Below are positions 1 to 25,390 of a stretch of DNA of 64,000 nucleotides, in pieces. The position numbers were made by a program, and so were the translations under genes. Below the pieces are notes generated by a model that saw only the letters and a program-made list of their open reading frames with translations, searched no databases and had not been told where the DNA came from. How positions within the stretch are numbered: the first letter of the stretch is position 1; every line of letters begins with the position of its first letter. The stretch comes from a virus. The stretch spans positions 28,501 through 92,500 of the IMG/VR virus record IMGVR_UViG_3300037486_000490, one strand, 5' to 3'.

Positions 1-415
1 CGGCTACCATACTCAGCGAAAGTCCTTTTACATCGAGTACCGATGCTGAAAGAGCAACACCTGCATAAGGTTGTTCGACGGTTGCCACACTTATCATAGC
101 TGCAAATGAGTAATCATTATAAGGTTTGTCACTCACAAGCTTGTAATGGGAATAGCTTAAGCCGAATCCTGCGCGTGATACGAACGTGCTTTCAAACTGC
201 AAGAACTCACCAAGCTCATTATAAGACGACTTCACCACTTGAGCCATTATCAGCATCTCAGGACGGAACAGGAACGAGCTTACTGCATCTTTGGATCCGC
301 TTACACTCTGGATACGTTCAACCGTTACCGGTTCAAGAAATCCTTTAAAGAGACCCTGGGCGTTAGCCATTGTCATAGACAACAGCAGAACTGCGAGAAA
401 TAGAAGTTTTTTCAT
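1..415 (-). CDS. Signal-peptide protein, probable outer-membrane beta-barrel (3' end runs off the window)
   Basis: Not in the ORF track. Manual translation from ATG 415: MKKLLFLAVLLLSMTMANA|QGLFKG...SRAGFGLSYSHYKL...YSFAAMISV...YAGVALSASVLDVKGLSLSMVA, open to position 1. Alternating hydrophobic strands. Confidence 0.6.
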   Translation of the reverse strand, partial: MKKLLFLAVLLLSMTMANAQGLFKGFLEPVTVERIQSVSGSKDAVSSFLFRPEMLIMAQVVKSSYNELGEFLQFESTFVSRAGFGLSYSHYKLVSDKPYNDYSFAAMISVATVEQPYAGVALSASVLDVKGLSLSMVA

Positions 416-416
416 G

Positions 417-776
417 TTACTTTCCTTTATTAATTATTTGTTTTTCACGGTACATCCTGGTGTTAATCTCCTTGGATTTAACTACATCGACTTTCTTGAA
501 CAGGAACTTCATTACCGTATTCACAAGCCAGGCTACCATAGATCCTTCTTTGATCTTGCCTGTCTGACCGAGCCATGTCTCAATAGGTATGAGAATTACC
601 AGAGCAACCATTGCCCAGTTGGCTTTCACAAGTCCCAGGAGAAACTGGAACATATCATTGAATGTCATGCCTTGATGCACAACCGTGCTGTCCACTGGTG
701 TGGAATCAACAACCTGTCCCGATACGACCATAGCCGTAATCAGGAGTACTGTCATAAGTAAAATACTCTTTTTCAT
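417..776 (-). CDS. Membrane protein with N-terminal signal peptide (holin-like or envelope protein)
   Basis: MKKSILLMTVLLITAMVVSG|Q, then hydrophobic segment WAMVALVILIPIETWLG and a basic C-terminus. Confidence 0.55.
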   Translation of the reverse strand: MKKSILLMTVLLITAMVVSGQVVDSTPVDSTVVHQGMTFNDMFQFLLGLVKANWAMVALVILIPIETWLGQTGKIKEGSMVAWLVNTVMKFLFKKVDVVKSKEINTRMYREKQIINKGK

Positions 777-973
777 GTTTAATTATTATTTAAGTGATTC
801 AAATACAATACTCTACAAAAATGTAGCTGCCAAAAGCTATGCAACCCAGAAGTCCAAGTTCTATGACTCTCATTGCAATGACGATTAATACTACTGCTGT
901 TCTCATGGATATTACTTTTTAGCAAGTTAATTCCATGAATATTCAACCGACACCAGACTGCCGGAAAGGGTTA

Positions 974-1009
974 TTATATCTATAACCCTTTTACAAGGAA
1001 AGGTTTATA
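974..1009. repeat. 36-bp palindromic element, copy 1 (direct repeat of 9246-9281)
   Basis: TTATATCTATAACCCTTTTACAAGGAAAGGTTTATA; 34/36 identical to copy 2; intergenic. Confidence 0.9.
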
Positions 1010-1017
1010 AGATGCGT

Positions 1018-1320
1018 TTAGGGAAGAGGCGGAAAAGTATTCGGTACCCAGGGCATCAGTTCTGCAACAAGTTGAACGAATATCCATCCGAGTATGCCTG
1101 CTGCGTTCCATGCCATATCCCAGGCACTGATAAATTCTTTATCATGATATTTATCCCATAATTCTTTACCCACAGCAACCAGCCCTGCAATTCCCATTGC
1201 AAGCAACCTGGGAATAAGTGTCTGCCAATATTCATTTCCGCCTATAGAAGGCGAGAGAAAATTGTACGTTACATCTGTTATGAAGTAACATGCCAGAAAA
1301 TGTAAGAGTGCTTCTATCAT
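1018..1320 (-). CDS. Small multi-TM membrane protein
   Basis: Hydrophobic segments with a GKELWD...ISAWDMAWNAAG motif seen in small phage/Bacteroidota membrane proteins. Confidence 0.6.
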   Translation of the reverse strand: MIEALLHFLACYFITDVTYNFLSPSIGGNEYWQTLIPRLLAMGIAGLVAVGKELWDKYHDKEFISAWDMAWNAAGILGWIFVQLVAELMPWVPNTFPPLP

Positions 1321-1330
1321 CTTTTATTAT

Positions 1331-2422
1331 TTAATTACCATCCCATCCAGCAATTCTTGCAAGCATCCACCACATAGCTTTACCAAGTCTTAATTCTCCA
1401 GCAGCAGAAATATGCCCTTCTATTTCTGGATCATTATTTGTATTTGTTATAGAAGGATAAGTATGTCCATCCCATGTTGTAGTAGTGGGTGTCCCGTTGT
1501 CATCATAACATAAAATATCAGCATAATCAAAAAGTATTACACTCTCTTGAGAATCAACCCAATCTCTAAGGTGTTCATACTTGAGATAAGCCTGGTACAT
1601 ATTTTCAGCGTTGAGATTTCCATTATAATTATCTACTGGTCCTGTTGTGAAAAATACTTTTGTAGGAATACTATTGGTAGTACAATAATCAACATATTCT
1701 TGTGTGACACTTATATATGTATCCATACTCACACCATTGCCTGTAATTGAAAAATCAGAAGCATCTAATCCCCATGCTCTGTCACCATTTGGACCACTAA
1801 CAGAAGAACCCCACCAATGAACTCCATAAATAGGATCAGCAGTTTCAGTAGCACCAGTTCCCATTGGATCCCAACACCATCCAAATCCAATAGCTGAAAC
1901 AGTCAGATTGTTTGCATAACAATAAGAGATACTTGCTTTTGTTCTTGTAATAGCAGTAGCATTGGTCCACCAATCTTCTTCACCATGCCAATATATCCAA
2001 CCTGTAGTATTATCATAATCGCCCCATCTTGCCCCACTTGCTCTTAGATGAGAAGTAGTATATGCTTCTGGGTTTGGATCTGTACCTACCCAGGGAATTC
2101 CATCAGTAACATTAACTGCAAACTTAGCATCCAATGCCTGTAATAAAATTAATCCATATCTTACTCCATAAGAATGCGATTCTCCTGCATTTACCATCCA
2201 CATTTTTTTTACCTCATTAATGTACACCTGTGGAATATCGTTATATAAATTTACTACAGTATGATCAGCTATTATCTTAGGAGACGTTGATTGTTGTTCA
2301 ACTGTATAATTAATAGGAGTAAATCCGCCATTATTAATAGGAATTCCATTATGGACTAACAGTGATTGTGCAGATATACCGAAGCTAACTAATAATAATA
2401 TTATTGTAATATTTTTCTTCAT
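1331..2422 (-). CDS. Secreted protein, possible SGNH-like alpha/beta hydrolase
   Basis: Signal peptide ...SFGISA|Q; GESHS near N-terminus, LFDYADI and GHISAAGELRLGKAMWWMLARIAGW at C-terminus. Confidence 0.5.
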   Translation of the reverse strand: MKKNITIILLLVSFGISAQSLLVHNGIPINNGGFTPINYTVEQQSTSPKIIADHTVVNLYNDIPQVYINEVKKMWMVNAGESHSYGVRYGLILLQALDAKFAVNVTDGIPWVGTDPNPEAYTTSHLRASGARWGDYDNTTGWIYWHGEEDWWTNATAITRTKASISYCYANNLTVSAIGFGWCWDPMGTGATETADPIYGVHWWGSSVSGPNGDRAWGLDASDFSITGNGVSMDTYISVTQEYVDYCTTNSIPTKVFFTTGPVDNYNGNLNAENMYQAYLKYEHLRDWVDSQESVILFDYADILCYDDNGTPTTTTWDGHTYPSITNTNNDPEIEGHISAAGELRLGKAMWWMLARIAGWDGN

Positions 2423-2424
2423 AG

Positions 2425-3960
2425 CTATTTTACTGGTATTCCTTGATATATTATAAGTTTACTTCCGTTTACTATTGGCAATACTATATTACTATCCCCA
2501 CTTTCATACCATCCAAGATCAGGAGCAGAGCCATTATAAATAATCCCAAGACTTGACATATTATCATCAGTTACACCTCCATCAATCAAATCTGATGTTG
2601 GATCAAGTTTTCCAAAATCAACATCAGGCAATGAACCATCTGTCTTTCTTGATGCTAAAAGTTCATTAACATCCAAACTTATAAAATCATCAGCTGTAAC
2701 AGTAAATGAAGGATTGTCTTGCCAAAAAGGACTGCTACCATAACTTTGGAAAGTATTATGGTCCAGCGTAAAAACCCAACTCATATTATCTTGAGCCCAA
2801 GGAATATTAAACCAAGGGTAATCAGAATCAAGATAAGATATATTATTTCTATAAATACACCATGAAGCTGCAAGTGGACTTTCAGTACAATTCTGTACAA
2901 GATATCCTATTTTATTATTATATGATATGTTATTATATGTCCAAGCTCTCGTCCATTCATCTCCTAAAGCATTATTAGGATCATAACTAAATCCCATATT
3001 ATTAGCAGATATATTATTATGTGTAATTCTTGAAATATAATCTGGTGTATGAGGAGGAGGATCACCTATCTTAAATCCATTACCCTCTGATGCTGATAAT
3101 GTTGGATCGCCATTATTAAATGCCCAACAGTTACGCATTACTGTAAGACATAATTGATCTAAATTAATACCATCATCAGCATTACCCCATGCTCTACATC
3201 CTTCTAATAATCCATAATTTGTAGTAAAATCATCATACTGTTGTAGAAAAAATCCATCTGCTCCATTACCAGCTTGTCTTAACCATGTCACACCAAGGTC
3301 AAGTGTATAGGTACTAAGACTATCAGCATTATCATAAGCATCACAATTTATCCACATACTTGTATCTACTATTGATAAATTATAATTGAATATGTTAAAT
3401 CCAGCACCACCATTATGATGTGAATGACATCTATCAAAGATTAAATTTGTGCAATCACTACTTGTCCATCCAGGAGTTTTATGACCATATTCTCCATAAT
3501 TTACCAAGTCTATACTTCTTTGGTCTTGTCTTACATTACATATAGTTAATCCAACAAACTTGACATAATTACAATTAGAAAATTCTAATCCATTATTATA
3601 TCCTTGAGGTGATGCAACTTGATATCTGCAATCAAGAACAGCGGAATCTCCTACAGCAAGTTCTGGCGGATACAGTGAAATAACCAATGGAGCTGCACGT
3701 GAAGATGTCATACCATCTAAATAAACATACGCTGATCTTGTGGTTTCATTTGCTGGTGTATATCTTCCTGCTCTAATATATAACGTATCACCAGCTGATA
3801 ACATTTCTACCCCATGCTTCCATGTTGCCCATGGTGTTGAAATACTTTGTGCTTGAGTTGTAGTTCTACTATCATTACCATTTGTTGCAACATAGTACGT
3901 AGTAGCTGATACATTTAATGATATTAAAATCAATAATAATATAATAAATCTTTTTATCAT
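2425..3960 (-). CDS. Secreted right-handed parallel beta-helix protein (pectate-lyase PL9-like depolymerase)
   Basis: Signal peptide; TTYYVATNGNDS...PWAT...AGDTLYIRAG; CRAWGNADDGINL, GNGFKIG; C-terminal SDLIDGG...GSAPDLGWYE. Confidence 0.8.
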   Translation of the reverse strand: MIKRFIILLLILISLNVSATTYYVATNGNDSRTTTQAQSISTPWATWKHGVEMLSAGDTLYIRAGRYTPANETTRSAYVYLDGMTSSRAAPLVISLYPPELAVGDSAVLDCRYQVASPQGYNNGLEFSNCNYVKFVGLTICNVRQDQRSIDLVNYGEYGHKTPGWTSSDCTNLIFDRCHSHHNGGAGFNIFNYNLSIVDTSMWINCDAYDNADSLSTYTLDLGVTWLRQAGNGADGFFLQQYDDFTTNYGLLEGCRAWGNADDGINLDQLCLTVMRNCWAFNNGDPTLSASEGNGFKIGDPPPHTPDYISRITHNNISANNMGFSYDPNNALGDEWTRAWTYNNISYNNKIGYLVQNCTESPLAASWCIYRNNISYLDSDYPWFNIPWAQDNMSWVFTLDHNTFQSYGSSPFWQDNPSFTVTADDFISLDVNELLASRKTDGSLPDVDFGKLDPTSDLIDGGVTDDNMSSLGIIYNGSAPDLGWYESGDSNIVLPIVNGSKLIIYQGIPVK

Positions 3961-4844
3961 GGGATTATTCCTTTACTATTTGAATCCATATATGCTTCAA
4001 AATTATCTACAATAGCATCTCTCATTGCAGTAGTGATATGTTCAGCAACAAAAGCAAGTGATACTTGTGCTACTGAATAAAATTCCCTTGTATAATTTTT
4101 TCTTGCCAATATGTTAAATTCCATTGTAGGTAGTCCAACGCTATTGGCTGTGGCAGGATCAGAAGTACTGGTTGTTTTATTTTTATATAAGATCACAGCA
4201 CTTGAACTTGTTCTTGTTGTTATCCATAATGCAGCGTGTGCATTACTTGTAGTTTCAGTATAACTTACTGTAACATCATTAAGAGAAAAAACAATCTCCC
4301 CAGACGAATAAGGTTGCAAACAAGTATTTTGAACGCCATCAGATACACCAAGATAACATCCTTCATTTGCTGGGTTTGCAGCCGTTCTGGAGTAGACGCC
4401 TATTGCTCCACTATTCTGAGTAAAATTAACTCCATCAGTGGATGGTACAAAATCAGTGCTAATATATTGAGATGTTCCATTACCAGTAAATCCTTCAAGT
4501 GTAGTAAATGATGCACTATAGTTTGTACAATCATGATCTCTCTCAACTGCATTTCTTAAAGATGACTCTGATGTCTCATTTGCAAGAATATACATTGCAT
4601 CAAATACATCAGATAGATTAGTAATACCTAAGTCACTTTTAAGATCGGTAAAGAATGTATTTAACTTATCGAGTTGTCCACTACTTAATTCAGTAGTAAG
4701 ACCATTAATATACGTTTCAAGATCAGAGTCATATCCTCCCCCTTGCTCTGTAGCAACAGGAACATGAAACGGATGTCTTGCAATCTGCCCCTGGACTGGC
4801 AGAAGTAGTAAAACAAGTAGCCATATTGAAAATAGTCTTCTCAT
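3957..4844 (-). CDS. Secreted protein with lectin/LamG-like fibre-tip domain
   Basis: Signal peptide ...LPVQG|Q; GFTGNGTSQYISTDFVPS resembles concanavalin-like phage fibre-tip domains. Confidence 0.55.
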   Translation of the reverse strand: MRRLFSIWLLVLLLLPVQGQIARHPFHVPVATEQGGGYDSDLETYINGLTTELSSGQLDKLNTFFTDLKSDLGITNLSDVFDAMYILANETSESSLRNAVERDHDCTNYSASFTTLEGFTGNGTSQYISTDFVPSTDGVNFTQNSGAIGVYSRTAANPANEGCYLGVSDGVQNTCLQPYSSGEIVFSLNDVTVSYTETTSNAHAALWITTRTSSSAVILYKNKTTSTSDPATANSVGLPTMEFNILARKNYTREFYSVAQVSLAFVAEHITTAMRDAIVDNFEAYMDSNSKGIIP

Positions 4845-6967
4845 TACCAGTTCCTTATTTTATAACCAGACATTGTTAAACTTAGCAAACTTGGTTTATT
4901 GCCAGCCGATACTGCTGAAATAGTACACCATACCCAGACATTAGGTGGTATTTCATTATTTGTAAAACTCGTATCTTCATCGCCAGTAGTAATACTGGTT
5001 ATAGTATAAGCCGCAGAATTGAGGTTTGTGGCAGAACCACTCTTAAATGTACCATGCCAACTGATCTGAACCCCGACTGTTTCTGTTCCAGACCCTTCAG
5101 CTAAAACTCCCCTTATAGAAGTGATATGAAGTGTATCAGCGCCAGCATTATAAAATGCTCCTGAGATAGCATTATTATTAAATACTACTGTATCTGCCGA
5201 TATTCCAGAGCCAAGTCCAAATATGAATATTGGAATGGTATCTATATTAAGTCTGGCATTAAGTGTAATTAAATCTTCAACATCCTCTTCTGTTACTGTT
5301 CCCGTTCCTCCATAGGTTCTTGCGTAAGATTGTGTAGCTAATGTATCTGTTGTACTAACTTTTTGAACTCCAGTGAAAGTTGGATTTGCAAGTGGAGCAT
5401 AAGTTGACGAAACCTCAGAACTAAGTATATAGTGAGTTAACATTGAGGTAGTATCAGATACGTTTACTTTGTTAGTTAAGCCGGTTGTTAGATCATAATT
5501 TGAAGCATAATGCCCTGGACCAGCCGTGCTATCGGCAAGCATAACTGCAATATCAGATATTTCTAATCCTGCTCCTATCCTTGCATCAAGACTATCATTA
5601 ATATTTTGTGTGGTGGAAAGAGTCCCGGATGTTGGCAGAGTTACAGTTGTAGATGCTATGGTTGTAAAGGTTAGTGCATCAGCACCCGAAAGCGTTAATG
5701 ATCCACTGGCAGGGGTGAAACCCGTCACTGTTGCAGCAGTCTCACTATCCAATAAATAATTACCCAACATAGAAGCCGTATCTGCCACCTCTATATAAAG
5801 AGGTCGTAAAACATTCAGACTATCAGCAATTTCATCCCTGACATCTCCTATTGTTACTGTACCAATACCGCCATAAGATCTTGCATAAGACTGGGTAGCA
5901 AGTGTATCAGTTGTACTATATTTAGGAAGAACACCCGTGAAAGTCGGAGATGTAAACATTGTTGCCTTACTTTCGTTGGTAACATTTCCTAAACTTACAT
6001 CAGACGATGTCAATGAGAGAGCAGTCTTGAAGTTTGCTGCACTTAAAGCATCTACGGTGTTATTTGCATTTACACGAAGAAAGGTTATTGCCGATGGATT
6101 TGTGAGAGTTAACAGGTTTGAACCAACTGTTGACTGAGCAACAAACCCCATGTTTCCATACTCGTCAATATTCAATAAATTCGTGGTTCCAGCAGAAGGT
6201 AGTGCAGCTATCGGAAGTCGATAACTCCGATTTGCAGTTGGAGCTCCTCCTTGTAGTGCTGTCCAAAATCCATTACTTCCATAAAAATAAAGTAGGCTTC
6301 CTCCATCAGATGTACCATCAAAATAAGGCGCAGCAGTACCATTACCCACAAGACCAGCTCTATCCCATACTGTTGAGTTATTGGTTATTGTAGTTCCCCA
6401 TGATGATCCGCTTGTTACAATAGGTATTCCTGAACCACTTGGATAAACCATTGAAGCTCCTTCTCCAACTTCCGTTAACAAAGCATACGTACTAAGCATT
6501 GTGGCTGTATCTGCTACGGCTACATATAAAGGTCGAAATACATTAAGACTGTCAGCAATCTCATCACGAACATCTCCAATAGCCACCCCTCCTGATCCAC
6601 CAACAAGTCTTGCATAAGCTCTTGTAGCAATAGTATCAGTTCCTATCCCCACAAGTTTGTTAAGCTCTGTATATGTGACCAGGGCTCCATCAAGGACATT
6701 TAATTCCTGACCGTTTGATGTTATCGTCACCGCATTGACCCTCCATGTAACAGGAAGTGATACCGTACCAGTGAATGTAGGTGATGCCAAAGGAGCTTTA
6801 GCTGTTTGTAAAATAGTTATTGAATCACTCGCTATCTCATCGTTAGCATTAATTATAGTTCTTGCCGTAGTCCATGTTCCTCCTGCGGGAATTGTGGTAA
6901 TAGTCTGTGCCATCAAACCTACTGAGAGTAAGACTACACCGAATATTATAAGTAATATTTTTTTCAT
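4844..6967 (-). CDS. Tail/head-fibre-like repeat protein carrying a signal peptide
   Basis: MKKILLIIFGVVLLSVGLMA|Q; fibre-shaft motifs APLASPTFTG, DVSLGNVTNESKATMFTSPTFTG, APLANPTFTG; internal duplications IGDVRDEIADSLNV x2 and TTDTLATQSYAR x2. Confidence 0.7.
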   Translation of the reverse strand: MKKILLIIFGVVLLSVGLMAQTITTIPAGGTWTTARTIINANDEIASDSITILQTAKAPLASPTFTGTVSLPVTWRVNAVTITSNGQELNVLDGALVTYTELNKLVGIGTDTIATRAYARLVGGSGGVAIGDVRDEIADSLNVFRPLYVAVADTATMLSTYALLTEVGEGASMVYPSGSGIPIVTSGSSWGTTITNNSTVWDRAGLVGNGTAAPYFDGTSDGGSLLYFYGSNGFWTALQGGAPTANRSYRLPIAALPSAGTTNLLNIDEYGNMGFVAQSTVGSNLLTLTNPSAITFLRVNANNTVDALSAANFKTALSLTSSDVSLGNVTNESKATMFTSPTFTGVLPKYSTTDTLATQSYARSYGGIGTVTIGDVRDEIADSLNVLRPLYIEVADTASMLGNYLLDSETAATVTGFTPASGSLTLSGADALTFTTIASTTVTLPTSGTLSTTQNINDSLDARIGAGLEISDIAVMLADSTAGPGHYASNYDLTTGLTNKVNVSDTTSMLTHYILSSEVSSTYAPLANPTFTGVQKVSTTDTLATQSYARTYGGTGTVTEEDVEDLITLNARLNIDTIPIFIFGLGSGISADTVVFNNNAISGAFYNAGADTLHITSIRGVLAEGSGTETVGVQISWHGTFKSGSATNLNSAAYTITSITTGDEDTSFTNNEIPPNVWVWCTISAVSAGNKPSLLSLTMSGYKIRNW

Positions 6968-7027
6968 CGTATTATTTCTTTATTATCGTTATTCGTATAG
7001 TGTGTTTTATATTACCTAATTTCACAA

Positions 7028-8182
7028 CTACCCATATACATTAGACCAATCATTATTATAAGCACACAATGCACCACTACTTAATGCTGCCCATGCTGCA
7101 GTATTTGTAACTTCAGGTATGGCATCTCCATTGCGATACTTAGTTTCACATAAATTATCTGCCAACCACTCCTGTGTACCTATACAAATAGTTCTATATA
7201 TTCTTCCATCATTCCCCACATATACTCCATATTGACCATGTGCTAGAGTAGTGCTATTTTTTACAAACCTAATTGGTAATCCACTTTTTAGTGTATGATA
7301 TTGTGAATCTTCTATAACAAAATCCTCAAATATTACATTAATTGCTGCATGATAAGGATGAGTAGTATTTATGAGTGTTGCTGACCAATAATCGTATTCT
7401 ATCTGGAAGGCATCAAATACCCCTTCCTTTGTCCTGTAACCAGCTCCAATAGCGTTAAACCCAAGTTCATTTGTTCCTTCATTAGTAGTCCAATAATCAA
7501 GTCCCATAGTCCTTAATTTAAAACATCCATTAGGGTTTATATAGTCTCTCTTAATTACTATATCATTATATGTTGGCACATGCCATCCATTAGATGCAAT
7601 ATTTCTTGCATCATTTACAACATACCAATTATAGAAAAGTCCATACAAAGGAGGATCAGTTTCAACAAACGTCCTATTATCCTTCATGTACCCGGACTCC
7701 ATCATTGTTTCACCCCAATATTGAACCCATAACTTAAAGAACTTATTTAAAACTACTTTATCTGATTCTGTGAGAACTTCACCGGTTTTAAGAATACCTA
7801 TTGCCGATACATCATAAGGTTCGAAATCGGCATATTTGATAAATGTCCTGGTTGTAGTACTAATAATAAGGTTGGCATGTGTCTTCTGCTGAAGCACTCC
7901 GGCACCATTGAACCACCAGTCATCTGTACCATCTGCTGCCAGATAGGTTGCATTATCAGGTACAGCAAAGGTTGCCTCAGTATCAGGAGGGATATATTTT
8001 GTACTCCAGTTCTTTCCTGTAACAGTTATGACAGAAGAATCAAGATCAGAAAGCAAATCATCCCCGTCATACTTGCCGGTCCATAGGAATAGGAACTTGG
8101 CTTTTAATGCCGCAGGCAAGCCATGACTCCTGTTATAGTTGGGAGTGACCAGATTGCAACGACCTAATCCATTAAATCCCAT
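7028..8182 (-). CDS. Fibre protein with circularly permuted Fib_succ_major (FISUMP) domain
   Basis: YGLFYNW...GWHVPT...TNELGF...GLPIRFVKN precedes DGRIYRTICIGTQEWLADNL...KYRNGD...CAYNND. Confidence 0.75.
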   Translation of the reverse strand: MGFNGLGRCNLVTPNYNRSHGLPAALKAKFLFLWTGKYDGDDLLSDLDSSVITVTGKNWSTKYIPPDTEATFAVPDNATYLAADGTDDWWFNGAGVLQQKTHANLIISTTTRTFIKYADFEPYDVSAIGILKTGEVLTESDKVVLNKFFKLWVQYWGETMMESGYMKDNRTFVETDPPLYGLFYNWYVVNDARNIASNGWHVPTYNDIVIKRDYINPNGCFKLRTMGLDYWTTNEGTNELGFNAIGAGYRTKEGVFDAFQIEYDYWSATLINTTHPYHAAINVIFEDFVIEDSQYHTLKSGLPIRFVKNSTTLAHGQYGVYVGNDGRIYRTICIGTQEWLADNLCETKYRNGDAIPEVTNTAAWAALSSGALCAYNNDWSNVYG

Positions 8183-8190
8183 AACTTTAG

Positions 8191-8502
8191 TTAAACTTCA
8201 AACACATTGAATACCGTACAAATATTTGCAATACCACCAAGTACCGCAACTTTATCTCCAATAACTACAGGAAGCCAAAGCTCCCCACCGGATGGTATAA
8301 AAATAGATGTAGCAAGTGCAGTAGGATTAACTCCTGTAAGCACACGGATATCTGCATCTGTTGCCACAATACGCACAAGGTTTCCTGCAATTGCAGCACT
8401 CTGAACAGATGCAGCTGTACCATTTACATCCTGTGATGCTGTAAGTCCCATTACGGGAATTGGATTACCATTGGCATCCATCAACATAACTGCCTTCGAC
8501 AT
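8191..8502 (-). CDS. Small beta-sandwich virion protein (head-spike base-like)
   Basis: VRIVATDADIRVLTGVNPTA...IFIPSGGELWL...GDKVAV resembles small spike-base jelly-roll proteins; no signal peptide. Confidence 0.45.
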   Translation of the reverse strand: MSKAVMLMDANGNPIPVMGLTASQDVNGTAASVQSAAIAGNLVRIVATDADIRVLTGVNPTALATSIFIPSGGELWLPVVIGDKVAVLGGIANICTVFNVFEV

Positions 8503-8522
8503 TGTAATTTATTTTAGTATTG

Positions 8523-9161
8523 TTAATAGGTAATGTAGGTGATGTAAACTCTCCACTCACCGTTGGTTGTGGTAGCCCAGTTTTGATCCGGATCAAATGA
8601 CAACCATACTTTTGTAGCAGCAGTGTAACTCATTACAACAGCCACTGGAAGGGCAGGGTTTATAACTCCTACCACCTCGTTCTGAGTATCACATGATGCA
8701 GCTACAATAAATTGTGCGCCTGCGGAAGCATTGCCGGCTGCTATGGTAATATCGGAAGCTCCAGCAGAGTTGACAAAGTCGTTTGAAGCAACGATCTGAA
8801 TGTCAAGAACTTTTGATCTTGCAGGTATAATTGCTCCCAAATCCAGGTTATATGCAGTATGATTGGCAGCTGCAACAGGAAGGTAAAAGTCATACCCTAC
8901 GGCATACCCTAAAAGTGCAATACCTTTCTGGATGGTATATATTCCAGCCATACTAACCCCATTCACTTCCGGAGTAACCGTAAGCAGATCAGGAGCTGCA
9001 AGTTGGGAATATACAGACTGAAAATTTTGATTGGTAACCCTCATAGCAGTACCAAGCCCATCACCGCCTGAGCCATTACGACCTTTACCGGGATTAAGAA
9101 GTACCTGACCATATCCTGAGAGTGAGAGGATGCAGAACAATAAAACAAGAAGTTTTTTCAT
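8523..9161 (-). CDS. Signal-peptide protein with fibre-anchor-like N-terminus and jelly-roll-like C-terminus
   Basis: MKKLLVLLFCILSLSGYG|QVLLNPGKGRNGSGGDGLGTAMRVTNQNF resembles the IELINVGLAADDGTGDLLRDAFIHVNN start of fibre 10692-12752. Confidence 0.6.
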   Translation of the reverse strand: MKKLLVLLFCILSLSGYGQVLLNPGKGRNGSGGDGLGTAMRVTNQNFQSVYSQLAAPDLLTVTPEVNGVSMAGIYTIQKGIALLGYAVGYDFYLPVAAANHTAYNLDLGAIIPARSKVLDIQIVASNDFVNSAGASDITIAAGNASAGAQFIVAASCDTQNEVVGVINPALPVAVVMSYTAATKVWLSFDPDQNWATTTNGEWRVYITYITY

Positions 9162-9245
9162 GATTTTATGATTTAAATGATATAATGTGCAACACTAAAT
9201 TAAGCCATGTCATTCTGGATAGTAAAAATATACGTACCAGAAACG

Positions 9246-9281
9246 TTATATCTATAACCCTTTTACCAGAAAAGGTTTATA
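9246..9281. repeat. 36-bp palindromic element, copy 2
   Basis: TTATATCTATAACCCTTTTACCAGAAAAGGTTTATA; arms TATAACCCTTTT/AAAAGGTTTATA with a 5-nt spacer. Confidence 0.9.
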
Positions 9282-9292
9282 GTGACGATTAG

Positions 9293-10300
9293 TTATAAAT
9301 CCGGGTCGGTCTTTGTCACATCTATACTATACACACCACCCCCATGAACCAGGGAACTGCTACAAGATATGTTTAAGTTAATCTGATCACCATCTTTTGA
9401 AGACGTACTAACCCAACTGGTAGAGCCATCTACATGCCAGATTCTTACCCATACATAAACATCGTAAGCACCAAGTCCGGTATCAATCCTGAATGTTATA
9501 TGCTGAGATGTTGCTGAGTCAGTCAAAACTGTTGATGCATAGTTGGAAAAAGTTAATCCTGAACTATCGTAATCATTAAAATAATAGGATATTGAGGAAG
9601 AACTTGCCTGCGTTACCTCTATTGTTCTTCCGAATGAGTTATCGCTTGTAAATACCCATACTGTATCAGTACGAGATGCTCCACTATTAATTGCGTTTGG
9701 TACCAGGCGTAGTTCATCACCATCAACATAGTCTCCGGTATTCACCTGAATACCGCCTCGATAAACGCTCGGAGTAATCCAACTTGGATAACTATCAATG
9801 ATCCATGCGGATGCACTCGTTGAAATTATTGATCCCATGTAGGTATATCCACTACTTGTAAACGCCATGCTTACAACTGAAGGGTTCAGATAATCAGCAA
9901 CTACAAATGACCCAGAATTAATATACACTACTCCATCTATAGTAGCATTGGGGAGTTTATATACTGTTCCCGGTTGACTCGTAGACCATGTAAGACATTG
10001 TGTGCTGCATATAATTAACTCATATTGAAAGGTTCCTATTCCAAACGGACAATCTACATACTGATTATCTTCAAACTGAACATCAATTATAACACTTATA
10101 GCTAATGATTCATCTTGCCTGTAGCTTAATGTCTCTGCACTTGTCTTATAAAACCATGTGCCTACACCACCAGGTCTTCTTAAACGTACCCCAAAGTAAT
10201 AAGAACCCAGACCCATATCCTCCGGTCTTACCCTATCCGCAGTACCTGCATATGCAAAGTACTTGAATACTACTTGGTAAGGTGTTGTTCGTGGTGCCAT
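9293..10300 (-). CDS. BACON (Ig-like) domain tail adhesin, C-terminal part
   Basis: SASAWIIDSYPSWITPS...NSGASRTDTVWVFT...TIEVTQ is a BACON-type signature. Confidence 0.7.
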   Translation of the reverse strand: MAPRTTPYQVVFKYFAYAGTADRVRPEDMGLGSYYFGVRLRRPGGVGTWFYKTSAETLSYRQDESLAISVIIDVQFEDNQYVDCPFGIGTFQYELIICSTQCLTWSTSQPGTVYKLPNATIDGVVYINSGSFVVADYLNPSVVSMAFTSSGYTYMGSIISTSASAWIIDSYPSWITPSVYRGGIQVNTGDYVDGDELRLVPNAINSGASRTDTVWVFTSDNSFGRTIEVTQASSSSISYYFNDYDSSGLTFSNYASTVLTDSATSQHITFRIDTGLGAYDVYVWVRIWHVDGSTSWVSTSSKDGDQINLNISCSSSLVHGGGVYSIDVTKTDPDL

Positions 10301-10302
10301 AA

Positions 10303-10689
10303 TTACGCTAAATATTCATTATCTACAGGATATAAAGTGGCAGGTATTGTACTTCCACCAGTACCTGAAAAAGTATAAATTGGCGGCTTTAACGTAGAGT
10401 CATGGTTATATCCTCTGAAATCTCCAAGTCTGTAATTACTAATAGGTTTAGTATATCCCCAAATAGTAGGAGAATATACACCACCTGCAAGTTCAGGTAG
10501 TGCAAAGCCACACATCCCATCCGATCCCTTCCAGAAAGTAGAAACCCCATCTGCACCTCTTGTAGGTTTAAATCTACTCCACATATTCACAAGAGTAGAA
10601 ATACACAACTCAGAGACCTGGTTGATATCCTCACCAAGAGTATTCTTAATGAGCGTAGTGGTTATATCTGTAGTTCCCAATGCTGCCAT
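10303..10689 (-). CDS. Tail-fibre adhesin N-terminal adaptor domain
   Basis: TDITTTLIKNTLGE...LC...VNMWSRFKP...YRLGDFRGYNH, a motif typical of Bacteroidota phage fibre adhesins. Confidence 0.65.
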   Translation of the reverse strand: MAALGTTDITTTLIKNTLGEDINQVSELCISTLVNMWSRFKPTRGADGVSTFWKGSDGMCGFALPELAGGVYSPTIWGYTKPISNYRLGDFRGYNHDSTLKPPIYTFSGTGGSTIPATLYPVDNEYLA

Positions 10690-10691
10690 AT

Positions 10692-12752
10692 CTACGGTGT
10701 TCCGAATGCTGCTATATCATTAGCAGCTGTTAATAATCCTGCGGAGCTTAAGCTTGCAATAATGGTAGTTCCATACTTAAATACAAGTTTTCCGCTTTCT
10801 TGCATTATGGTAAAGTTTGTCATATTAAGTTCAGCATGCGTATGTGCCAGTAAACTATACCTTAAATCTCCACGCGCATCTGTATGATATATTGTATGAT
10901 CGTCATCGAGCAATCCTGTCAATGAACCATGGTCAGTAAGTATCGGAGCAGTGCCTGATAACTGTGGATTGCCCCTGAGATCCTGAGCCTCAGCGTATGT
11001 TCCACTTGAAGAGGTAGCATCGACTATTACCTTGTATAATACCTTGAACTCCGGAGAGGGCAATGTTCCAAAAGACAATCCCGAGTATGTTGCTGCCCTT
11101 GCTGCAGCTAATGTGCCATATGCAGCCTGACCCATAAGTGAAATAATAGGTGACACCGTATCATTGGTTGCTACCAGGTAATACACCCCATATTCATTCG
11201 ATGCAAGCTCTGCCAGCGTTCCGGCATTATCATACTGGGGTCTTCCACCAGTTCCTGCTTTCCACCAACTATTTTGAAGTGAAGTCCATAACCAATTGAG
11301 ACTTACATCCCTGTAAACAACTGATACCTGGTATGGATTTGCTCCCGTAATGCTGTAAAAAAGATCCTCATCCGCATACTGTCCACCTAAAAGGTTAATG
11401 GATGTGTCAGCAAAAGCTGCTGTAAGCCCTGAGATATATGCTGTACCCCTTGTAAGATGCAGATAAGCATGCGTAGAAGAAGTCATGTTAGTCCCGTGAC
11501 GCTCGTCATATAACCGGTAATTCGCACCGTTCTTGTAAACAATGCATATAGGAACTGCGGTAAATATGCTCCAGGATACTTGCAGTCTTGTTAGTACTCC
11601 CGAACTATTATAGTACACATACCATATTCCATTAGCAGATGCAGAAAAATCTAACGTCTGCGTTGTCTTGGCATATGCTGTTCCCTTATACCATGCAGTA
11701 TGTACCCCTGTAATATTCAATACTCCTGCAACAACAGACAATGTAGGAGTGGGATACAATCCCGTAGGCTCCTCTATAGCATCAACAGGGTTATTTGTTA
11801 TATTATCCCAGTGAACCTGAGCAGATCCTGAGGTCTGTACCTCTGTTTTGGTGTATACGCTTGTTGCAGCTGCATAACCGGCGGATGCATGGTTGCCCCA
11901 TCCATAAGCGGTATTCCAGTTAGCTGAGTTATTTGTTATTGATGTTCCCCATCCAAGTCCTGTAGAAAGTCCAATCCCTGCCCCGGGATATACCATACTC
12001 ACAGAACCACCTCCAGCCGGTTGCCAGGTACCGTCCTCACGAAGAAACAACGTAGCGCCGGTACCGAGTATAATACCACCCATAACAGTCGGCGTGGCAA
12101 CAGGCATGCTTTCCCAGATAGTAGGAGGAAGCCATCCGGTAGAAGACCATGCCTGGATTTCATAATCACCGGCAAAAGACTTCTTGCATCTCAAATATTC
12201 ATTCGGGAGACCGGAATTCATAATCTCAAACCAGTCACTGACATCTGTTCCACCAGAAGTAGCAGGTATCCATGACCTGACGCCTGCCGTAGTAGAACTT
12301 AAGACATATCCACTCACAGCGGGGTTGCCAAGAACAGGCTCATATACTCCGGCATGCGTATGTGCAACAGGAGAATAGACTCCCGTATGAGTATGCGCCA
12401 GCAGAGAATAACGTGCATCCCCGCGTGTCTGGTTATAATATATCGTATGATCGTCCACCCCAAGATCAAGCAGATCTCCATGGGATACGATAGCACTATC
12501 GGTATCTATCACCAACTCCCAGTTGACAGCCTGGTATGCCCCGGTAGAGTCCGCGGTACAAACGTATAGTTTACCAGTAGTGAGGTAAAGGTCGTTAATG
12601 AAGTAAGGATGAGTGGGTTCTGAGTAAAATACCTGTGCCCTGGAATTCTGCAGGTCTACCAGGCTATTATTTACATGAATGAATGCATCACGGAGCAGAT
12701 CCCCTGTACCGTCATCAGCTGCAAGTCCAACATTTATAAGTTCTATAGCCAT
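10692..12752 (-). CDS. Tail fibre protein
   Basis: N-terminal INVG..DDGTGD.LRDAF anchor; HTH (His-x-His) motifs; repeated HGxLxxLxxDDHTIY..RGD.RYSLLAHTH; C-terminal DIAAF. Confidence 0.8.
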   Translation of the reverse strand: MAIELINVGLAADDGTGDLLRDAFIHVNNSLVDLQNSRAQVFYSEPTHPYFINDLYLTTGKLYVCTADSTGAYQAVNWELVIDTDSAIVSHGDLLDLGVDDHTIYYNQTRGDARYSLLAHTHTGVYSPVAHTHAGVYEPVLGNPAVSGYVLSSTTAGVRSWIPATSGGTDVSDWFEIMNSGLPNEYLRCKKSFAGDYEIQAWSSTGWLPPTIWESMPVATPTVMGGIILGTGATLFLREDGTWQPAGGGSVSMVYPGAGIGLSTGLGWGTSITNNSANWNTAYGWGNHASAGYAAATSVYTKTEVQTSGSAQVHWDNITNNPVDAIEEPTGLYPTPTLSVVAGVLNITGVHTAWYKGTAYAKTTQTLDFSASANGIWYVYYNSSGVLTRLQVSWSIFTAVPICIVYKNGANYRLYDERHGTNMTSSTHAYLHLTRGTAYISGLTAAFADTSINLLGGQYADEDLFYSITGANPYQVSVVYRDVSLNWLWTSLQNSWWKAGTGGRPQYDNAGTLAELASNEYGVYYLVATNDTVSPIISLMGQAAYGTLAAARAATYSGLSFGTLPSPEFKVLYKVIVDATSSSGTYAEAQDLRGNPQLSGTAPILTDHGSLTGLLDDDHTIYHTDARGDLRYSLLAHTHAELNMTNFTIMQESGKLVFKYGTTIIASLSSAGLLTAANDIAAFGTP

Positions 12753-13036
12753 CAGATCTGTATTGCATCAGAAGATATAAAAGTCATGTCTGCTGTTAGA
12801 GGAATGGTAACAGGTATTGTTGATCCCGGGGTGGTAAGACTGCTTGCGTCATAGTCCACTTCATAGACAAAACGAAGCAGATATTCCTCAAGCACATCCT
12901 GAAAGATATTCTCATGCTCAATACCCAAAGCCATAGCGGTTGCCATAAGCTGGCATTTATGACTTATTGAACTATCGAGGGCAACGATAAAATCGGTGAC
13001 ACTTGGATAGTCAAGGTAATTGAGCGAGAATGGCAT
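12752..13036 (-). CDS. Small virion protein (fibre-docking candidate)
   Basis: C-terminal TADMTFISSD motif; translationally coupled to the fibre gene. Confidence 0.45.
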   Translation of the reverse strand: MPFSLNYLDYPSVTDFIVALDSSISHKCQLMATAMALGIEHENIFQDVLEEYLLRFVYEVDYDASSLTTPGSTIPVTIPLTADMTFISSDAIQI

Positions 13037-13740: not shown

Positions 13741-13753
13741 GGCATAATAAGAT

Positions 13754-13784
13754 AAAAGAAAGGGGAGGTGAATTCTCCCCTTTC
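13754..13784 (-). terminator. Intrinsic terminator
   Basis: GAAAGGGGAG-GTGAATT-CTCCCCTTTC hairpin with a T-run on the minus strand. Confidence 0.75.
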
Positions 13785-13794
13785 AAGTGACTAA

Positions 13795-14730: not shown

Positions 14731-15771
14731 TTATTCGTTTTTGAGTGATTCCTGATTAGAGCTTTGATACCTTTGACTTTCTATAACCTCTAAAATGCGG
14801 TTGACAACTGAATCTACTATCTCCAAATGTGTATGCTCAGGTAGTTCACAATTCAACAACGAAGTTATACTCACCGCCCTTGGTTTGCGAATGTACGTCA
14901 TGAATAGGTCTTTTAATATAAGCCTTTCACTGTGAAGCACCCTCAATGAGTTCTCACGGACAACTGCCAGAGGGGATCTTTCGGTGGATTTTGCAAATGG
15001 ATTTGTTTGATCCCTGAAGACATCTTCGTGCTCGCTTACCCTTACTGGAGAGTTATATACCGGGAAATTGAAAACGGGTAGGGCTCTTATTGACCATGCC
15101 GATCCATCATAGTACAGGATATTGTTCCTGGTAGGGGAAAGAGCAAAGTTTGTGTATGAACCGGTGGTATTGGCAATATAGAAATCGCCTCTTACAGGCG
15201 TGGGAGTTGCCGGGTTGGTAGTTGTAACAGCCATTCCCAGGTAACGCGTGGTGATCCCCTGCTCAATTGCAAGCGGTTTAGCATTCACTACCAGGTTTAT
15301 ACGCGAGGATACATGTATGAAATAGTCATACAGCGTTACAGTTCCTGTACCGGTACCAGCAGCAGAAGCGATGAACACCGTTCCTACCTCGTTATTGGGA
15401 GCGCCAATTGTCGTAAAAGTAGTATTACCTACGGATACTATCTGGTATAATGAACCGGCAGCAGCTGCTGTAACAAGTATGGGAGTAGCCGATCCGAGCA
15501 GATACCTGCGATAATCCGGATTGGTATTGTCTATTACGGGAAGAAGACTGACTTCCTTTACAATACTCTGCAAATCGGCAAGCCGCTTTGAAGTATCCTC
15601 AAACCCCCGGCGTTTCGGATTTGAATCCGGGTAAAGCCGCTGCTTGATGAATGTCTCCTGAGCCTCGTTGATGAACAGGTCGATCTCTTCGGGCTGGAAG
15701 TTCTCAAATACATAGGAGTTTAAGTTCTGAAGCTTCTGCTCTATGGCAGTATGCATATTTTGTATGGTCAT
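14731..15771 (-). CDS. Tail ring / head-tail connector protein with inserted modules
   Basis: MTIQNMH...FQPEEIDLFINEAQ...GFEDTSKRLADLQSIVK and YIRKP...CELPEHTHLEIVD are crAss-like ring-protein motifs. Confidence 0.7.
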   Translation of the reverse strand: MTIQNMHTAIEQKLQNLNSYVFENFQPEEIDLFINEAQETFIKQRLYPDSNPKRRGFEDTSKRLADLQSIVKEVSLLPVIDNTNPDYRRYLLGSATPILVTAAAAGSLYQIVSVGNTTFTTIGAPNNEVGTVFIASAAGTGTGTVTLYDYFIHVSSRINLVVNAKPLAIEQGITTRYLGMAVTTTNPATPTPVRGDFYIANTTGSYTNFALSPTRNNILYYDGSAWSIRALPVFNFPVYNSPVRVSEHEDVFRDQTNPFAKSTERSPLAVVRENSLRVLHSERLILKDLFMTYIRKPRAVSITSLLNCELPEHTHLEIVDSVVNRILEVIESQRYQSSNQESLKNE

Positions 15772-17224: not shown

Positions 17225-17250
17225 ACTTTTATCTTATATAGTTAATAATG

Positions 17251-17293
17251 AAAAGGAAGAGAGGTCACAATCTGTGACCTCTTCTCCTCTTTT
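17251..17293 (-). terminator. Terminator after the major capsid gene
   Basis: AGAGGTCACA-ATC-TGTGACCTCT hairpin flanked by A/T runs. Confidence 0.75.
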
Positions 17294-17295
17294 AT

Positions 17296-18750: not shown

Positions 18751-18851
18751 TTTTAATTGGTTTTAGTTAAGACAATTGATTTTATGTCCTTCATCCGAAG
18801 GGCGTACTTTGCTCCTGACATTACTGTAATATGCTTTATAATACTGCGGGT

Positions 18852-22382: not shown

Positions 22383-24428
22383 TTAGAAGAAGCTTCTGTC
22401 CCAGAATGATCCTTCGGATGTCTCCTGGGCTTCGATCACCTGTTTTTTATACAAATCCTTCATATGGTACATTCCCACTATCATAGCGGAAACCCTGTCG
22501 AAGTTTCCTTCGCCGTAACGTATCAGTTCGTCCAGCAGCTGTAGGTCGTAGATATAATGCAGGTTCAACTTGTCCTTGCCATCATCGCCCTTTCCGCGGT
22601 GCATTATCAACCAGTCCCTGAGATAAATCTGTCCCTGACCCTTGCGCTCCTTGTTTGAGATGCTCATGCCGTAGGTACGTCCGAGCTTGCGAATGTTGAT
22701 GTTTTCCCGCTTGTCTATTATCTCCACCTCTTCCAGCAGCCAGCGCAGCTTATGCGTGCGCTTGGCATACTCCACCACGTTACCACGGTCATTTTCAAAT
22801 CCTATGCGTGCGTTGTAATACTCAGCCAGCATAAAGAGTACTTCGTTGTACTCGTCCTGCGACCCGGGTCTACCCACCCATGAGGCGACTATCATATCGT
22901 CAGGCTTGGATAGGGGGTTAATACGCTTTAAGACATACGCTGCACCGAGGGAGTTGCCACCGGAATCATCCTGTGCATAAGGGTCGCAGCATATAATGTA
23001 CATGTTATCGGGGATAACTCCGTCTGAGGAATAGAAGGGAGCCTGGTACACGGTCACGCATCCATGGATATTGTCTCCCTTTTCATGGGGGAACTTGGCT
23101 ACGGGACGAGCACTGTCCGAAGGTTTAAAGATCGTCTTGGCTTCAACACTCGTAGTAAGGAATCCGTTGACAGCCACGTTCTTATACAGCCCATGGGTAA
23201 AAATGTGGTTACGCCATTCAGAGATTGCCACCGTGGGGAATATATTCCCCGTTGTCCGAAGAAATGCTTCCCGAGGGGAGAAGGGACGTTCGGTAACATA
23301 CTTGTCAAGGATCGCCGGTGACTTGGCGGTAGTGCGTATATTCTCACGTTTTGCTTCTTCATATTCGCGCGCTGTCTGCCTATTGGAGTTTCCGTTGGAG
23401 TCTATGAACCCCTTTTTGTTTTGGTAATCAGGAAAGAAGAACCCGCAGTAAGTGCCGCGCGCATCATCGTCCCATATGTTCTCAACCGGGTAAAGGTTGT
23501 AAGGCTCGGGGTTATAGAACATCGACTCGAAGTCAATGGTACCACCTTCCATGTCACCACCAGTACCGTACAGCAGTATCTGACCGGTGATCAGCGCCCC
23601 ATCTTCTACAGCTGACTGGGTCGCCAGGTAAGAAGCCTTAAGGTTGTTGAATTTACCGCACTCCTCAAATAGGATGAGAGATGCATCCTTACCACGGGCG
23701 GCGTCCGGGTTATCAGCGAATGTGGTAGCGATTATCTGCGACCGGTAGCCTTTTTCGACATAGATCCCATTTATTTGTTCCAGATATGATGCCTTCACAT
23801 GCTCCATACGGTTGGTCACACCCCGGCGCTTTGTCCAGGCGGTATGCTCGTTCATGAAGTTCAGGTTGTCCACGATCATGCTCATGGTACCGTTGGGATA
23901 GAGGTACTTCTTATCGAATGCACCCACGAGCGTTATGGAGTCCCTGATAGTGTTGTACTTATTGGCTGCCTTGTCCGCATTCTTATAGGAATATCCTTTT
24001 CTTCGTGCCTTGCCGCAGATGACATGGTGACCACCATCTATCCACAGGGGTTTCTGATCCAGCAGTAATGCCTTAAGCTTTTCAGGGTCAATGCCCTTTT
24101 CCGCTATCTCGATGTGCCAGTAGTACTCATAATCTCCGTCCCAGAAGTCCGGGAAAGTCACGGTCTTTGTCTTGTACCGGGTCTTGCGCTTGGTAACTCC
24201 CGGAATCTCATCCACATCTTCGGTGAGTTTGATCTGCCCGAAGTTCAGGTAATGGTAATGATCGCCTGTAATCTGTTTTCCACCCGAGCTGTATCCATTA
24301 ATACACCGGCGCAGCTGCTCGTTCCAATATTCCATGTAACCCATGGAACTTGGAGGATCGTCGCAGTATCGCCCGTATTTGAGGAAAGTCTTGGCTTCCT
24401 CACGGAACATCTCGGTGTTAACCCACAT
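22383..24428 (-). CDS. terL: Terminase large subunit
   Basis: ITGDHYHYLNF, Walker A KARRKGYSY, LILFEECG, GTGGD, nuclease CDPY, FENDRG, NFDRVSA. Confidence 0.92.
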   Translation of the reverse strand: MWVNTEMFREEAKTFLKYGRYCDDPPSSMGYMEYWNEQLRRCINGYSSGGKQITGDHYHYLNFGQIKLTEDVDEIPGVTKRKTRYKTKTVTFPDFWDGDYEYYWHIEIAEKGIDPEKLKALLLDQKPLWIDGGHHVICGKARRKGYSYKNADKAANKYNTIRDSITLVGAFDKKYLYPNGTMSMIVDNLNFMNEHTAWTKRRGVTNRMEHVKASYLEQINGIYVEKGYRSQIIATTFADNPDAARGKDASLILFEECGKFNNLKASYLATQSAVEDGALITGQILLYGTGGDMEGGTIDFESMFYNPEPYNLYPVENIWDDDARGTYCGFFFPDYQNKKGFIDSNGNSNRQTAREYEEAKRENIRTTAKSPAILDKYVTERPFSPREAFLRTTGNIFPTVAISEWRNHIFTHGLYKNVAVNGFLTTSVEAKTIFKPSDSARPVAKFPHEKGDNIHGCVTVYQAPFYSSDGVIPDNMYIICCDPYAQDDSGGNSLGAAYVLKRINPLSKPDDMIVASWVGRPGSQDEYNEVLFMLAEYYNARIGFENDRGNVVEYAKRTHKLRWLLEEVEIIDKRENINIRKLGRTYGMSISNKERKGQGQIYLRDWLIMHRGKGDDGKDKLNLHYIYDLQLLDELIRYGEGNFDRVSAMIVGMYHMKDLYKKQVIEAQETSEGSFWDRSFF

Positions 24429-25390
24429 TACAGAGTGATAACTTGTCTTTTCTGTGATTCGGGCGTATAAAGGACCTCATGGAACGCATAACGCCCGTCT
24501 GCAAAAATATCCACATATCCGTACCCCCAATGAACTACTTTCGACATGCGCAGAGATCCATACTTGGTCATAGCCCCTTGCAGGGCAGGAAGCACCACCG
24601 CTGTCCGGAACCCGTCATCTATACGAATGAACGTATGGGTATGAGAACGGACTACTATGTCAGCGGTAGGGTTGTTCTCCAGCTGCGCCCAGAGGTCGCT
24701 CCAGAGAGCATCCTTAAGCAAAGGAGTTGCAGCTCCGTAAGGTGTTGAAGACCCTCCGGTATGATGCTTTACGTTGAAGATCACCCCGCCTATACTCAGC
24801 AGGTTCTCAGCATTAAGCATTGCACCAGTCTGCTGGGCAATGTTATACTCAAAAGCTTCCCCATCACCCGTATGATACGGAGTGCCATAGGTGATAACAT
24901 TGATCTTGGCTCCTACGGTGTCTATCACCTTAACAGCCATATCCACCTGGATATTCCGGTCAGTGGTAAGCAGTTCCGTACCTTTGCTCTTCTTACCGTC
25001 CCCGTCAATGAGATCGCCGTTGAAGATCGCATGTGTAAACGGTCTAAGACTATCGATGGATGCCGTAAAGAAGTCCCAGGACTCCCTTTCGAATTCTGCA
25101 AAGATCTTGTCTACTGCAGAATCCAGCGGAAGCTGGTACCCCTGTGGGGTGAGACCTGCCTTATGCCCGCAGTGAAAATCACCGGCAAGCAGTACCCTGT
25201 ACTTGGGTCGCTCCCTCAGTGCCTCCCTCATTGGCTCCTCGTTCAGAAGAACAAAGTTGAGCATGGTGGCTTCCCTGAGGGAAATGCCAAGCAGTTTAAT
25301 CAGTTCAGGATTACCTGCCTTAGGATGCATCCTTTTATAAGCGAATATTTTTGCCAATTCAATCGACGAGTATTTCCTTGGTATAGCCAT
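24428..25390 (-). CDS. Calcineurin-like metallophosphoesterase
   Basis: GDFHCGH, NGDLIDG, HH, SHTH; GTPYH in place of the usual GNH. Confidence 0.75.
   Translation of the reverse strand: MAIPRKYSSIELAKIFAYKRMHPKAGNPELIKLLGISLREATMLNFVLLNEEPMREALRERPKYRVLLAGDFHCGHKAGLTPQGYQLPLDSAVDKIFAEFERESWDFFTASIDSLRPFTHAIFNGDLIDGDGKKSKGTELLTTDRNIQVDMAVKVIDTVGAKINVITYGTPYHTGDGEAFEYNIAQQTGAMLNAENLLSIGGVIFNVKHHTGGSSTPYGAATPLLKDALWSDLWAQLENNPTADIVVRSHTHTFIRIDDGFRTAVVLPALQGAMTKYGSLRMSKVVHWGYGYVDIFADGRYAFHEVLYTPESQKRQVITL

Follow-up and report, generated by a model that had tools for sequence, protein, structure and literature searches.

We analysed a 64,000-nt stretch of DNA, hereafter the window, that covers bases 28501-92500 of a 92,500-bp phage record from sediment metagenomes (IMG/VR record IMGVR_UViG_3300037486_000490, referred to here as G000). 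Near the left end of the window, a 36-bp palindromic repeat occurs twice on the minus strand in direct orientation, as a left (L) copy at 974..1009 and a right (R) copy at 9246..9281. Both copies are intergenic, all nearby genes lie on the minus strand, and a minus-strand structural operon of ~44 kb passes through the region. In the sense of the genes, the L copy begins 8 nt past the stop codon (1018-1020) of the gene at 1018-1320 and the R copy begins 11 nt past the stop codon (9293-9295) of the gene at 9293-10300. The two copies are identical at 34 of 36 positions, and the differences, at positions 22 and 25, fall within or beside the spacer that separates the inverted arms. A 29-nt core pattern allowing up to three mismatches found two matches versus 0.00 expected from 100 shuffles; the whole 92,500-bp record holds exactly two copies of the repeat, and an nhmmer profile built from four units (those of G000 and of the relative described below) found no weaker copies in the record.

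The inverted arms can be described as 11 nt with a 7-8-nt spacer or as 12 nt with a 5-nt spacer. In the R copy the main hairpin (9252..9282) has 13-nt arms (9252-9264/9270-9282, 92% complementary) around a 5-nt loop, with one internal C.T mismatch mid-stem that is present in all four copies. The innermost pair is also lost in the L copy, which leaves effectively 11-nt arms and a 7-nt gap. An earlier sequence-only reading of this DNA had described the near-identical pair, its placement just past stop codons, the inverted arms around a 5-nt spacer and the clustering of differences in or next to that spacer, and each of these descriptions was confirmed. It had also placed a third half-site to the left of each copy, allowing alternative hairpins. 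This holds for the L copy, in which 965-974 pairs 10/10 with 982-991 to give the alternative hairpin at 965..991, the predicted minimum-energy fold on both strands; at the R copy the corresponding site (9241-9250) is a degenerate remnant. The spacers read TACAAGG and TACCAGA in G000 (2 differences in 7), and the longest run shared by the L and R copies is 21 consecutive bases, with no common 31-mer.

G000 is a distant crAss-like temperate phage. Its terminase, portal and major head protein match PHROGs 6681, 6547 and 11589, and a comparison of the head protein with the phage collection placed crAss-like phages closest (33-34% identity). A relative, IMGVR_UViG_3300002220_000740 (92,245 bp; G001), is collinear with it, with ~70% nucleotide identity (64-84% in aligned blocks) and 69% amino-acid identity across 44 ortholog pairs. 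G001 is an integrated prophage that has a 41-bp direct repeat at its ends (125-165 and 92049-92089), with 124 and 156 nt of host DNA outside, and this end repeat is the 3' end of a tRNA-Asp. The window carries the matching phage attachment site (attP) core at 27087-27120, beside a tyrosine integrase at 27253-28449, and G000 is therefore identified as temperate. CheckV estimates its completeness at 66%; its collinearity extends over all of G001, and the record is probably almost complete.

The collinearity of the two phages is interrupted around the repeats. The regions G000 23022-40374 (window -5478 to 11874) and G001 68558-75950 have no nucleotide homology save two islands detected by BLASTN, at window 956-1011 and 9155-9281, which consist of both repeats and their downstream leaders. 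These units have the same order and orientation in both phages, with a spacing of 8.3 kb in G000 versus 2.8 kb in G001. In the sense of transcription the layout is module A, the R unit, module B, the L unit, and then a peptide gene and module C. On the upstream side, similarity between the phages breaks off sharply where each hairpin begins; the R unit also loses it at the next start codon.

Module B, or the cassette (1012..9154, minus strand), comprises eight genes encoding proteins of 212, 103, 384 (Fib_succ_major), 707, 295, 511 (Pel9A-like beta-helix), 363 and 100 aa, among which the 707-aa protein is fibre-like. Its place in G001 is taken by unrelated genes of 121 and 747 aa, so that 8.1 kb between the units in G000 stand against 2.7 kb in G001, and the cassette content that the sequence-only reading had marked for comparison thus differs completely in one relative, G001. 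The cassette is low in G+C content in both phages (0.377 versus 0.434 for the genome in G000; 0.414 versus 0.456 in G001). Module A (9293..12752, minus strand), upstream of R, encodes a 686-aa fibre that keeps its N-terminal ~300 aa and differs in its C-terminus between the phages, followed by 128-aa and 335-aa genes for which BLASTP found no similarity to their G001 counterparts. Downstream of the L unit, after a 35-aa peptide gene, both phages have partly related genes. Unusually for a tail module, signal-peptide-like N-termini are present on most proteins encoded in window 1-9161 (212, 707, 295, 511, 363, 119 and 162 aa). The 121-aa and 747-aa cassette proteins of G001 have none, and the suggestion that the element specifically controls exported proteins did not survive this comparison, as the genes behind the R copy of G001 encode no signal peptide. 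In an analogous place in module C, G000 encodes a Peptidase_C14 caspase-domain protein (L008 12637-13422; window -863 to -78) and G001 a papain-family Peptidase_C1 (L003 6189-7154) that is unrelated to the G000 protease. Further left, G000 also encodes a 920-aa Pel9A-like beta-helix protein.

The repeat is the conserved part of a larger composite unit. The R unit (9155..9281, minus strand) runs from the hairpin through a leader to the first two codons of the gene at 8523-9161; it is 76% identical to its G001 counterpart over 129 aligned columns and is the sole aligned DNA for kilobases around. The core of the L unit (956..1011, minus strand) is 82% identical to G001 over 57 aligned columns. 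All four units (4/4) have a stop codon 8-37 nt before the hairpin and an ATG ~68-85 nt after it, and the order in the gene sense is stop codon, 8-37 nt, AT-rich hairpin, ~48 nt, a TTAAYTT(R)G box, 16-33 nt and start codon. The box of the R unit, TTAATTTAG (9195..9203, minus strand), lies 33 nt before the ATG, a distance that is fixed in both phages; it is a candidate -7-like promoter or leader element. The TTAAYTT(R)G box resembles the -7 element of Bacteroidetes promoters. The box of the L unit, TTAACTTG (923..930, minus strand), lies 16 nt before the ATG of a gene for a 35-aa hydrophobic peptide (799..906, minus strand) directly behind the unit. A homologue of this peptide, at 49% identity, occupies the same place in G001 (L003 7016-7123, minus strand), and a scan with the peptide found no match besides G001. 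The gene is missed by lists of open reading frames (ORFs) that start at an upstream TTG (779-946). An inverted repeat (903-917/924-938; 15-nt arms, 80% complementary, 6 nt apart) spans both TTAACTTG and the ATG of the 35-aa gene, and could mask this start codon.

To put the conservation of the repeat in proportion, the two phages are identical at 41% of 4-fold degenerate sites (1721/4184) in the 44 ortholog pairs, and 14 orthologous intergenic regions are 52-77% identical. The 38-column hairpin core, in comparison, is 87-92% identical in 6/6 pairwise comparisons, with paralogs as alike as orthologs; the probability of at least 34 matches in 36 positions at p = 0.41 is 1.6e-11. Across the whole unit of ~110 nt, orthologs share 65% (L with L) and 72% (R with R) and paralogs 52-57%. 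It follows that the element was already present in two copies before the two phages diverged. Judged from these comparisons, either selection on the primary sequence or recurrent exchange maintains the hairpin core. In the main helix, 9/12 pairs are invariant and 0 are compensatory among the four sequences, and the two substitutions seen in the stem disrupt sense-strand pairing. The loops vary in length and sequence and the stems are kept. Seven conserved bases lie outside the main helix and have no structural role in the R copies. The alternative L helix shows one compensatory change in G001, which is not significant among four sequences, as 122/500 shuffles reach it. These patterns suggest that the hairpin may be read by its sequence, as DNA or as RNA. 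Such strong conservation would also agree with the shared operator or RNA element that the sequence-only reading had offered as its other option.

The same patterns bear on whether the repeat is a plain terminator or attenuator hairpin that was duplicated, with neither a specific reader nor a role in exchange. Its hairpin form and its location just past stop codons would suit a terminator, and the compensatory change in the left alternative helix is of the kind seen in terminators. However, its stem is AU-rich and mismatched and there is no T-run on either strand, so that it fails the criterion of a G+C-rich stem plus T-run for a Rho-independent terminator, and a terminator scan did not call it. 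The real terminators in both genomes look different, being GC-rich with T-runs (for example 13741-13794, 17225-17295, 49438-49487 and 58716-58762 in the window), and they drift in sequence between G000 and G001, where they show compensatory substitutions or have been replaced by a different hairpin. The core, by contrast, is held at its high identity in all pairs against 41% at neutral sites, and the seven conserved bases beyond the main helix would be left unexplained in R. This suggests that the repeat is probably not an ordinary terminator, and we regard simple duplication of a terminator as quite improbable.

A second alternative is that the hairpin acts at the RNA level only, as a cis element for processing, end stabilisation or antitermination or as a translational operator read by a phage protein, and that its coincidence with the borders of the cassette differences is incidental. 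This would agree with the position of the hairpins 8-37 nt after stop codons, with the fixed box-to-ATG distance of both R units, with stems that are kept while loops vary, as in hairpins generally, with the conserved internal mismatch, which could be a recognition feature, and with the inverted repeat that spans the ATG of the 35-aa gene. A known system with two near-identical small hairpins in one phage that differ only in or near the loop is boxB of lambda nutL and nutR. In lambda boxB, however, the loop is the conserved and recognised part, whereas the present elements vary in the loops and keep the stems, with the weaker pairing on the sense strand. Points against an element confined to RNA are the absence of compensatory changes in the main helix, the two substitutions that break sense-strand pairing and the predicted sense-strand fold of the L copies, which uses a different hairpin. 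An Rfam search at E<=5 gave no match for the repeat and two chance-level matches elsewhere in 1-13000. Nor does an RNA-level role alone explain why homology ends exactly at the edges of the units. We consider this alternative unlikely on balance, while keeping it under serious consideration.

Sequencing runs provided a separate view of the borders. In the run that probably gave this assembly (source run; depth is one figure per contig), a contig of depth 8.42 spans 1856..9282 and ends inside the R hairpin, with flanking contigs at depths of 14.8 (9260 onward) and 12.7 (1-1367). This break is not a collapse of the repeat at k=31, because L and R share no 31-mer, and it points to another haplotype in the sample, one that matches this sequence from 9260 rightward and departs from it leftward; a 36-mer of the right flank, aimed at this alternative haplotype, found no match. 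At the other side, the low-depth contig ends at ~1856-1885, inside the gene at 1331-2422. The 3' part of this gene (~1338-1538) is matched by many contigs of three sediment runs, at a summed depth of 27 versus ~12 beside it, and several joints at 1338-1538 skip 96-176 nt. This segment seems to code for a domain that is widely shared and recombines. With the left end within this gene and its 3' segment so widely shared, the left junction is therefore placed in coding homology and not at L. This pattern of depth and junctions fits general recombination at any conserved stretch.

The sequence-only reading had proposed recombination sites that could excise or swap the cassette. The part concerning a swap has support, with a cassette that differs in G001 and with a contig break and depth drop at R in the source run; the part concerning dedicated sites is unlikely to hold. 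loxP, FRT and dif are core sites of tyrosine recombinases, and heterospecific lox pairs serve cassette exchange. As dedicated sites of a lox-, dif- or attC-like kind, the repeats would let a recombinase excise the cassette (L x R) or exchange it (L x L plus R x R), in the manner of recombinase-mediated cassette exchange (RMCE). Like lox, FRT and dif, the repeats have inverted arms of 11-13 nt, a spacer of 6-8 nt and two direct sites that differ only in the spacer; arms of 11 nt with a 7-8-nt spacer fit tyrosine-recombinase core sites, the arms are conserved in sequence, the cassette differs between the phages, and the contig break lies inside R. Unlike in those systems, no cognate recombinase or recombination product was found, and spacer length varies. 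The spacers of the partner sites differ in sequence and in G001 also in length (8 nt versus 7 nt), and differing spacers block strand exchange between partner sites of tyrosine recombinases. Among 106 ORF translations compared with Pfam or PHROGs (a part of the gene set), the only match to a recombinase family is the integrase, which is 18 kb away and uses an att core, the 3' end of tRNA-Asp, that has no relation to the repeat. In the source run the branch lies at 9259/9260, whereas an L x R hybrid would branch at 9245/9246, and the population variant has its left boundary elsewhere than at L. Excision was also sought directly: contigs of 3/3 runs contain no joint deleting 1010-9281, with the limits that runs X2 and X3 yield only short fragments of the stretch, which are uninformative on junctions, and that contigs can miss rare forms.

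Taken together, these observations make dedicated sites very unlikely. A variant in which the hairpins are heterospecific sites, so that a factor of the phage or the host joins L to L and R to R when two genomes co-infect a cell and the spacers prevent L x R excision, seems to us just as unlikely. If it were true, multi-gene modules for receptor binding and accessory functions could pass between crAss-like phages by an integron- or RMCE-like route. Integron attC sites have a consensus of R''/L''...L'/R' boxes with a GTTRRRY core; identification of the repeat as such a site was rejected, given arm ends without GTTRRRY, a cassette with no integrase beside it and cassettes of several genes. A looser motif that had been noted near attP exists (27133-27145 and 27166-27178, 13 and 46 nt from the att core), and its link to the repeat is unsupported. 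The likeness extends over ~8 nt, nhmmer found no significant similarity to the repeat in the attP region, and single half-sites match four times outside the repeats against ~3.5 expected, so that the link between repeat and attP-arm motif was rejected. On this evidence, modules are more likely to be exchanged through homologous recombination, with a conserved regulatory unit as the place of crossover, than through dedicated sites.

We propose that a composite punctuation unit, located between genes of the accessory tail region, has the repeat as its core, that it is a sequence-specific regulatory unit and that it doubles as a homology island for module exchange; we hold this proposal at about even confidence. 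The repeat itself, its conservation and position, the differing cassette contents and the lack of terminator features are shown by the data; we infer the regulatory role and the recombination role alike. A phage or host factor would read the hairpin by its sequence, as duplex DNA, as a folded strand or as RNA; the role of the hairpin would be to insulate or attenuate the module before it, and that of the leader to restart or tune expression of the module that follows. The two units could act as portable homology because they are the only conserved DNA in a hypervariable region, and general recombination there would swap whole modules between related phages. Such recombination, acting on short homology, could be carried out by a host system or by the phage's own proteins, which include an AAA_24 protein, presumably an ATPase of Sak4 type, and a PD-(D/E)XK nuclease. 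In the modular theory of Susskind and Botstein, boundary or linker sequences of lambdoid phages reportedly flank unrelated modules and were proposed as crossover points. The units resemble these linkers as short conserved intergenic sequences flanking unrelated modules, and they differ from them in that the conserved piece is a palindrome able to form a hairpin, is under strong purifying selection and has a leader attached.

The closest precedent is given by the promoter-early stem-loops (PeSLs) of T4-type phages. PeSLs are stem-loop and promoter motifs that extend from a stop codon to a start codon in hyperplastic regions, and related T4-type phages differ by insertion, deletion or replacement at them (Arbiol et al. 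2010, PMC2839356; Comeau et al. 2014, PMC4122927). The units share several features with them: a repeated composite motif with a stem-loop runs from a stop codon to the next start codon, it lies in the most plastic part of the genome where it marks the ends of gene replacements between related phages, and the proposed mechanism is homologous recombination at the conserved motif. The differences are that PeSLs belong to early genes while the units lie on the late, structural side of a temperate crAss-like phage, that PeSL stems are often polyG/polyC and were shown to terminate while the unit's stem is AU-rich, conserved in sequence and has a fixed mismatch, that single ORFans are exchanged there and multi-gene modules of 2.7-8.1 kb here, and that no mini-circles were seen here.

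Several observations weigh against the reading of the unit as regulatory punctuation that doubles as homology. There are only two copies per genome, versus ~50 for PeSLs. No sigma-70 promoter consensus was found in the unit, a further difference from PeSLs, which contain a strong sigma-70-like promoter, and the units contain neither a conserved sigma-70 pair nor a clear promoter of Bacteroidetes type. The TTAAYTT(R)G box was rejected as a genome-wide promoter motif, with 4 matches in G000 and 11 in G001, mostly in coding sequence. A middle/late promoter motif has been published for crAss-like phages (10.1101/2020.03.07.982082). Folding prediction gives weak structures (-9.3 to -16.8 kcal/mol, z -0.2 to -3.0), and the L copies fold into a different predicted hairpin than the R copies. 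G001 is the sole relative found that carries the element, and the coincidence of module boundaries with the units comes from one comparison of two genomes and one population signal. As to the latter, the low-depth contig does not end at the L repeat, and its drop in depth could in part be GC bias, the cassette having a GC of 0.377 versus 0.434.

The search for further carriers was extended beyond G001. Degenerate patterns of the hairpin matched only G001 in viral_contigs and nothing in metagenome_contigs; in genome_contigs they matched one metagenome-assembled genome of Caloramator, with a different loop and without phage context, which we took as chance. A 19-nt core pattern matched 8 other viral contigs, all of them without the partner arm and apparently coding, and these were likewise taken as chance. 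Megablast of 1-12000 against the phage collection gave no match. Distant relatives were reached through the neighbouring 304-aa protein (10 proteins; 5 + 4 loci), and these loci, most of which span only 1-8 kb downstream, showed neither the repeat nor an analogous direct repeat. Among the papers that a literature search listed, there was no description of such repeats in crAss-like phages.

Read as regulatory punctuation that also serves as shared homology, the repeat pair is a modest new example of a known mode of gene shuffling in phages. Tail-fibre and accessory modules decide which bacteria a phage attacks, and sites of module exchange help to explain the evolution of host range in crAss-like phages, which are abundant and hard to culture. 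The locus offers a compact example, outside the T4 family, of a short conserved hairpin unit marking module borders, and punctuation under such strong selection on primary sequence suggests a specific factor and not merely a terminator.

Some further features of the phage were noted apart from the repeats. Two intergenic gaps within the structural operon contain the word ACGCCCTTCGGAT, one at window 18751-18851 and one at G000 15596-15648 (L007); the former gap retains a near-copy in G001, and the latter is poorly conserved there. ARAGORN called a tRNA with anticodon TTA ('stop' suppressor) at 31421-31489, next to a tRNA-Met at 30823-30897; it overlaps the start of an NT5C-like ORF (31435-32043), and either the call may be false or the start of the ORF may be wrong. 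A tRNA-Tyr is located at 38557-38631, and the DNA-binding proteins of the phage include an AsnC-type wHTH protein encoded at 58137-58715. Finally, bases 1-11805 of G000 form an uninterrupted minus-strand frame, which counts at least 3935 codons and continues past the start of the record, and an open ORF at the other end of the record (window 62949-63998) may continue this frame, which would fit a gene for a giant virion protein that was split by the linearisation point.

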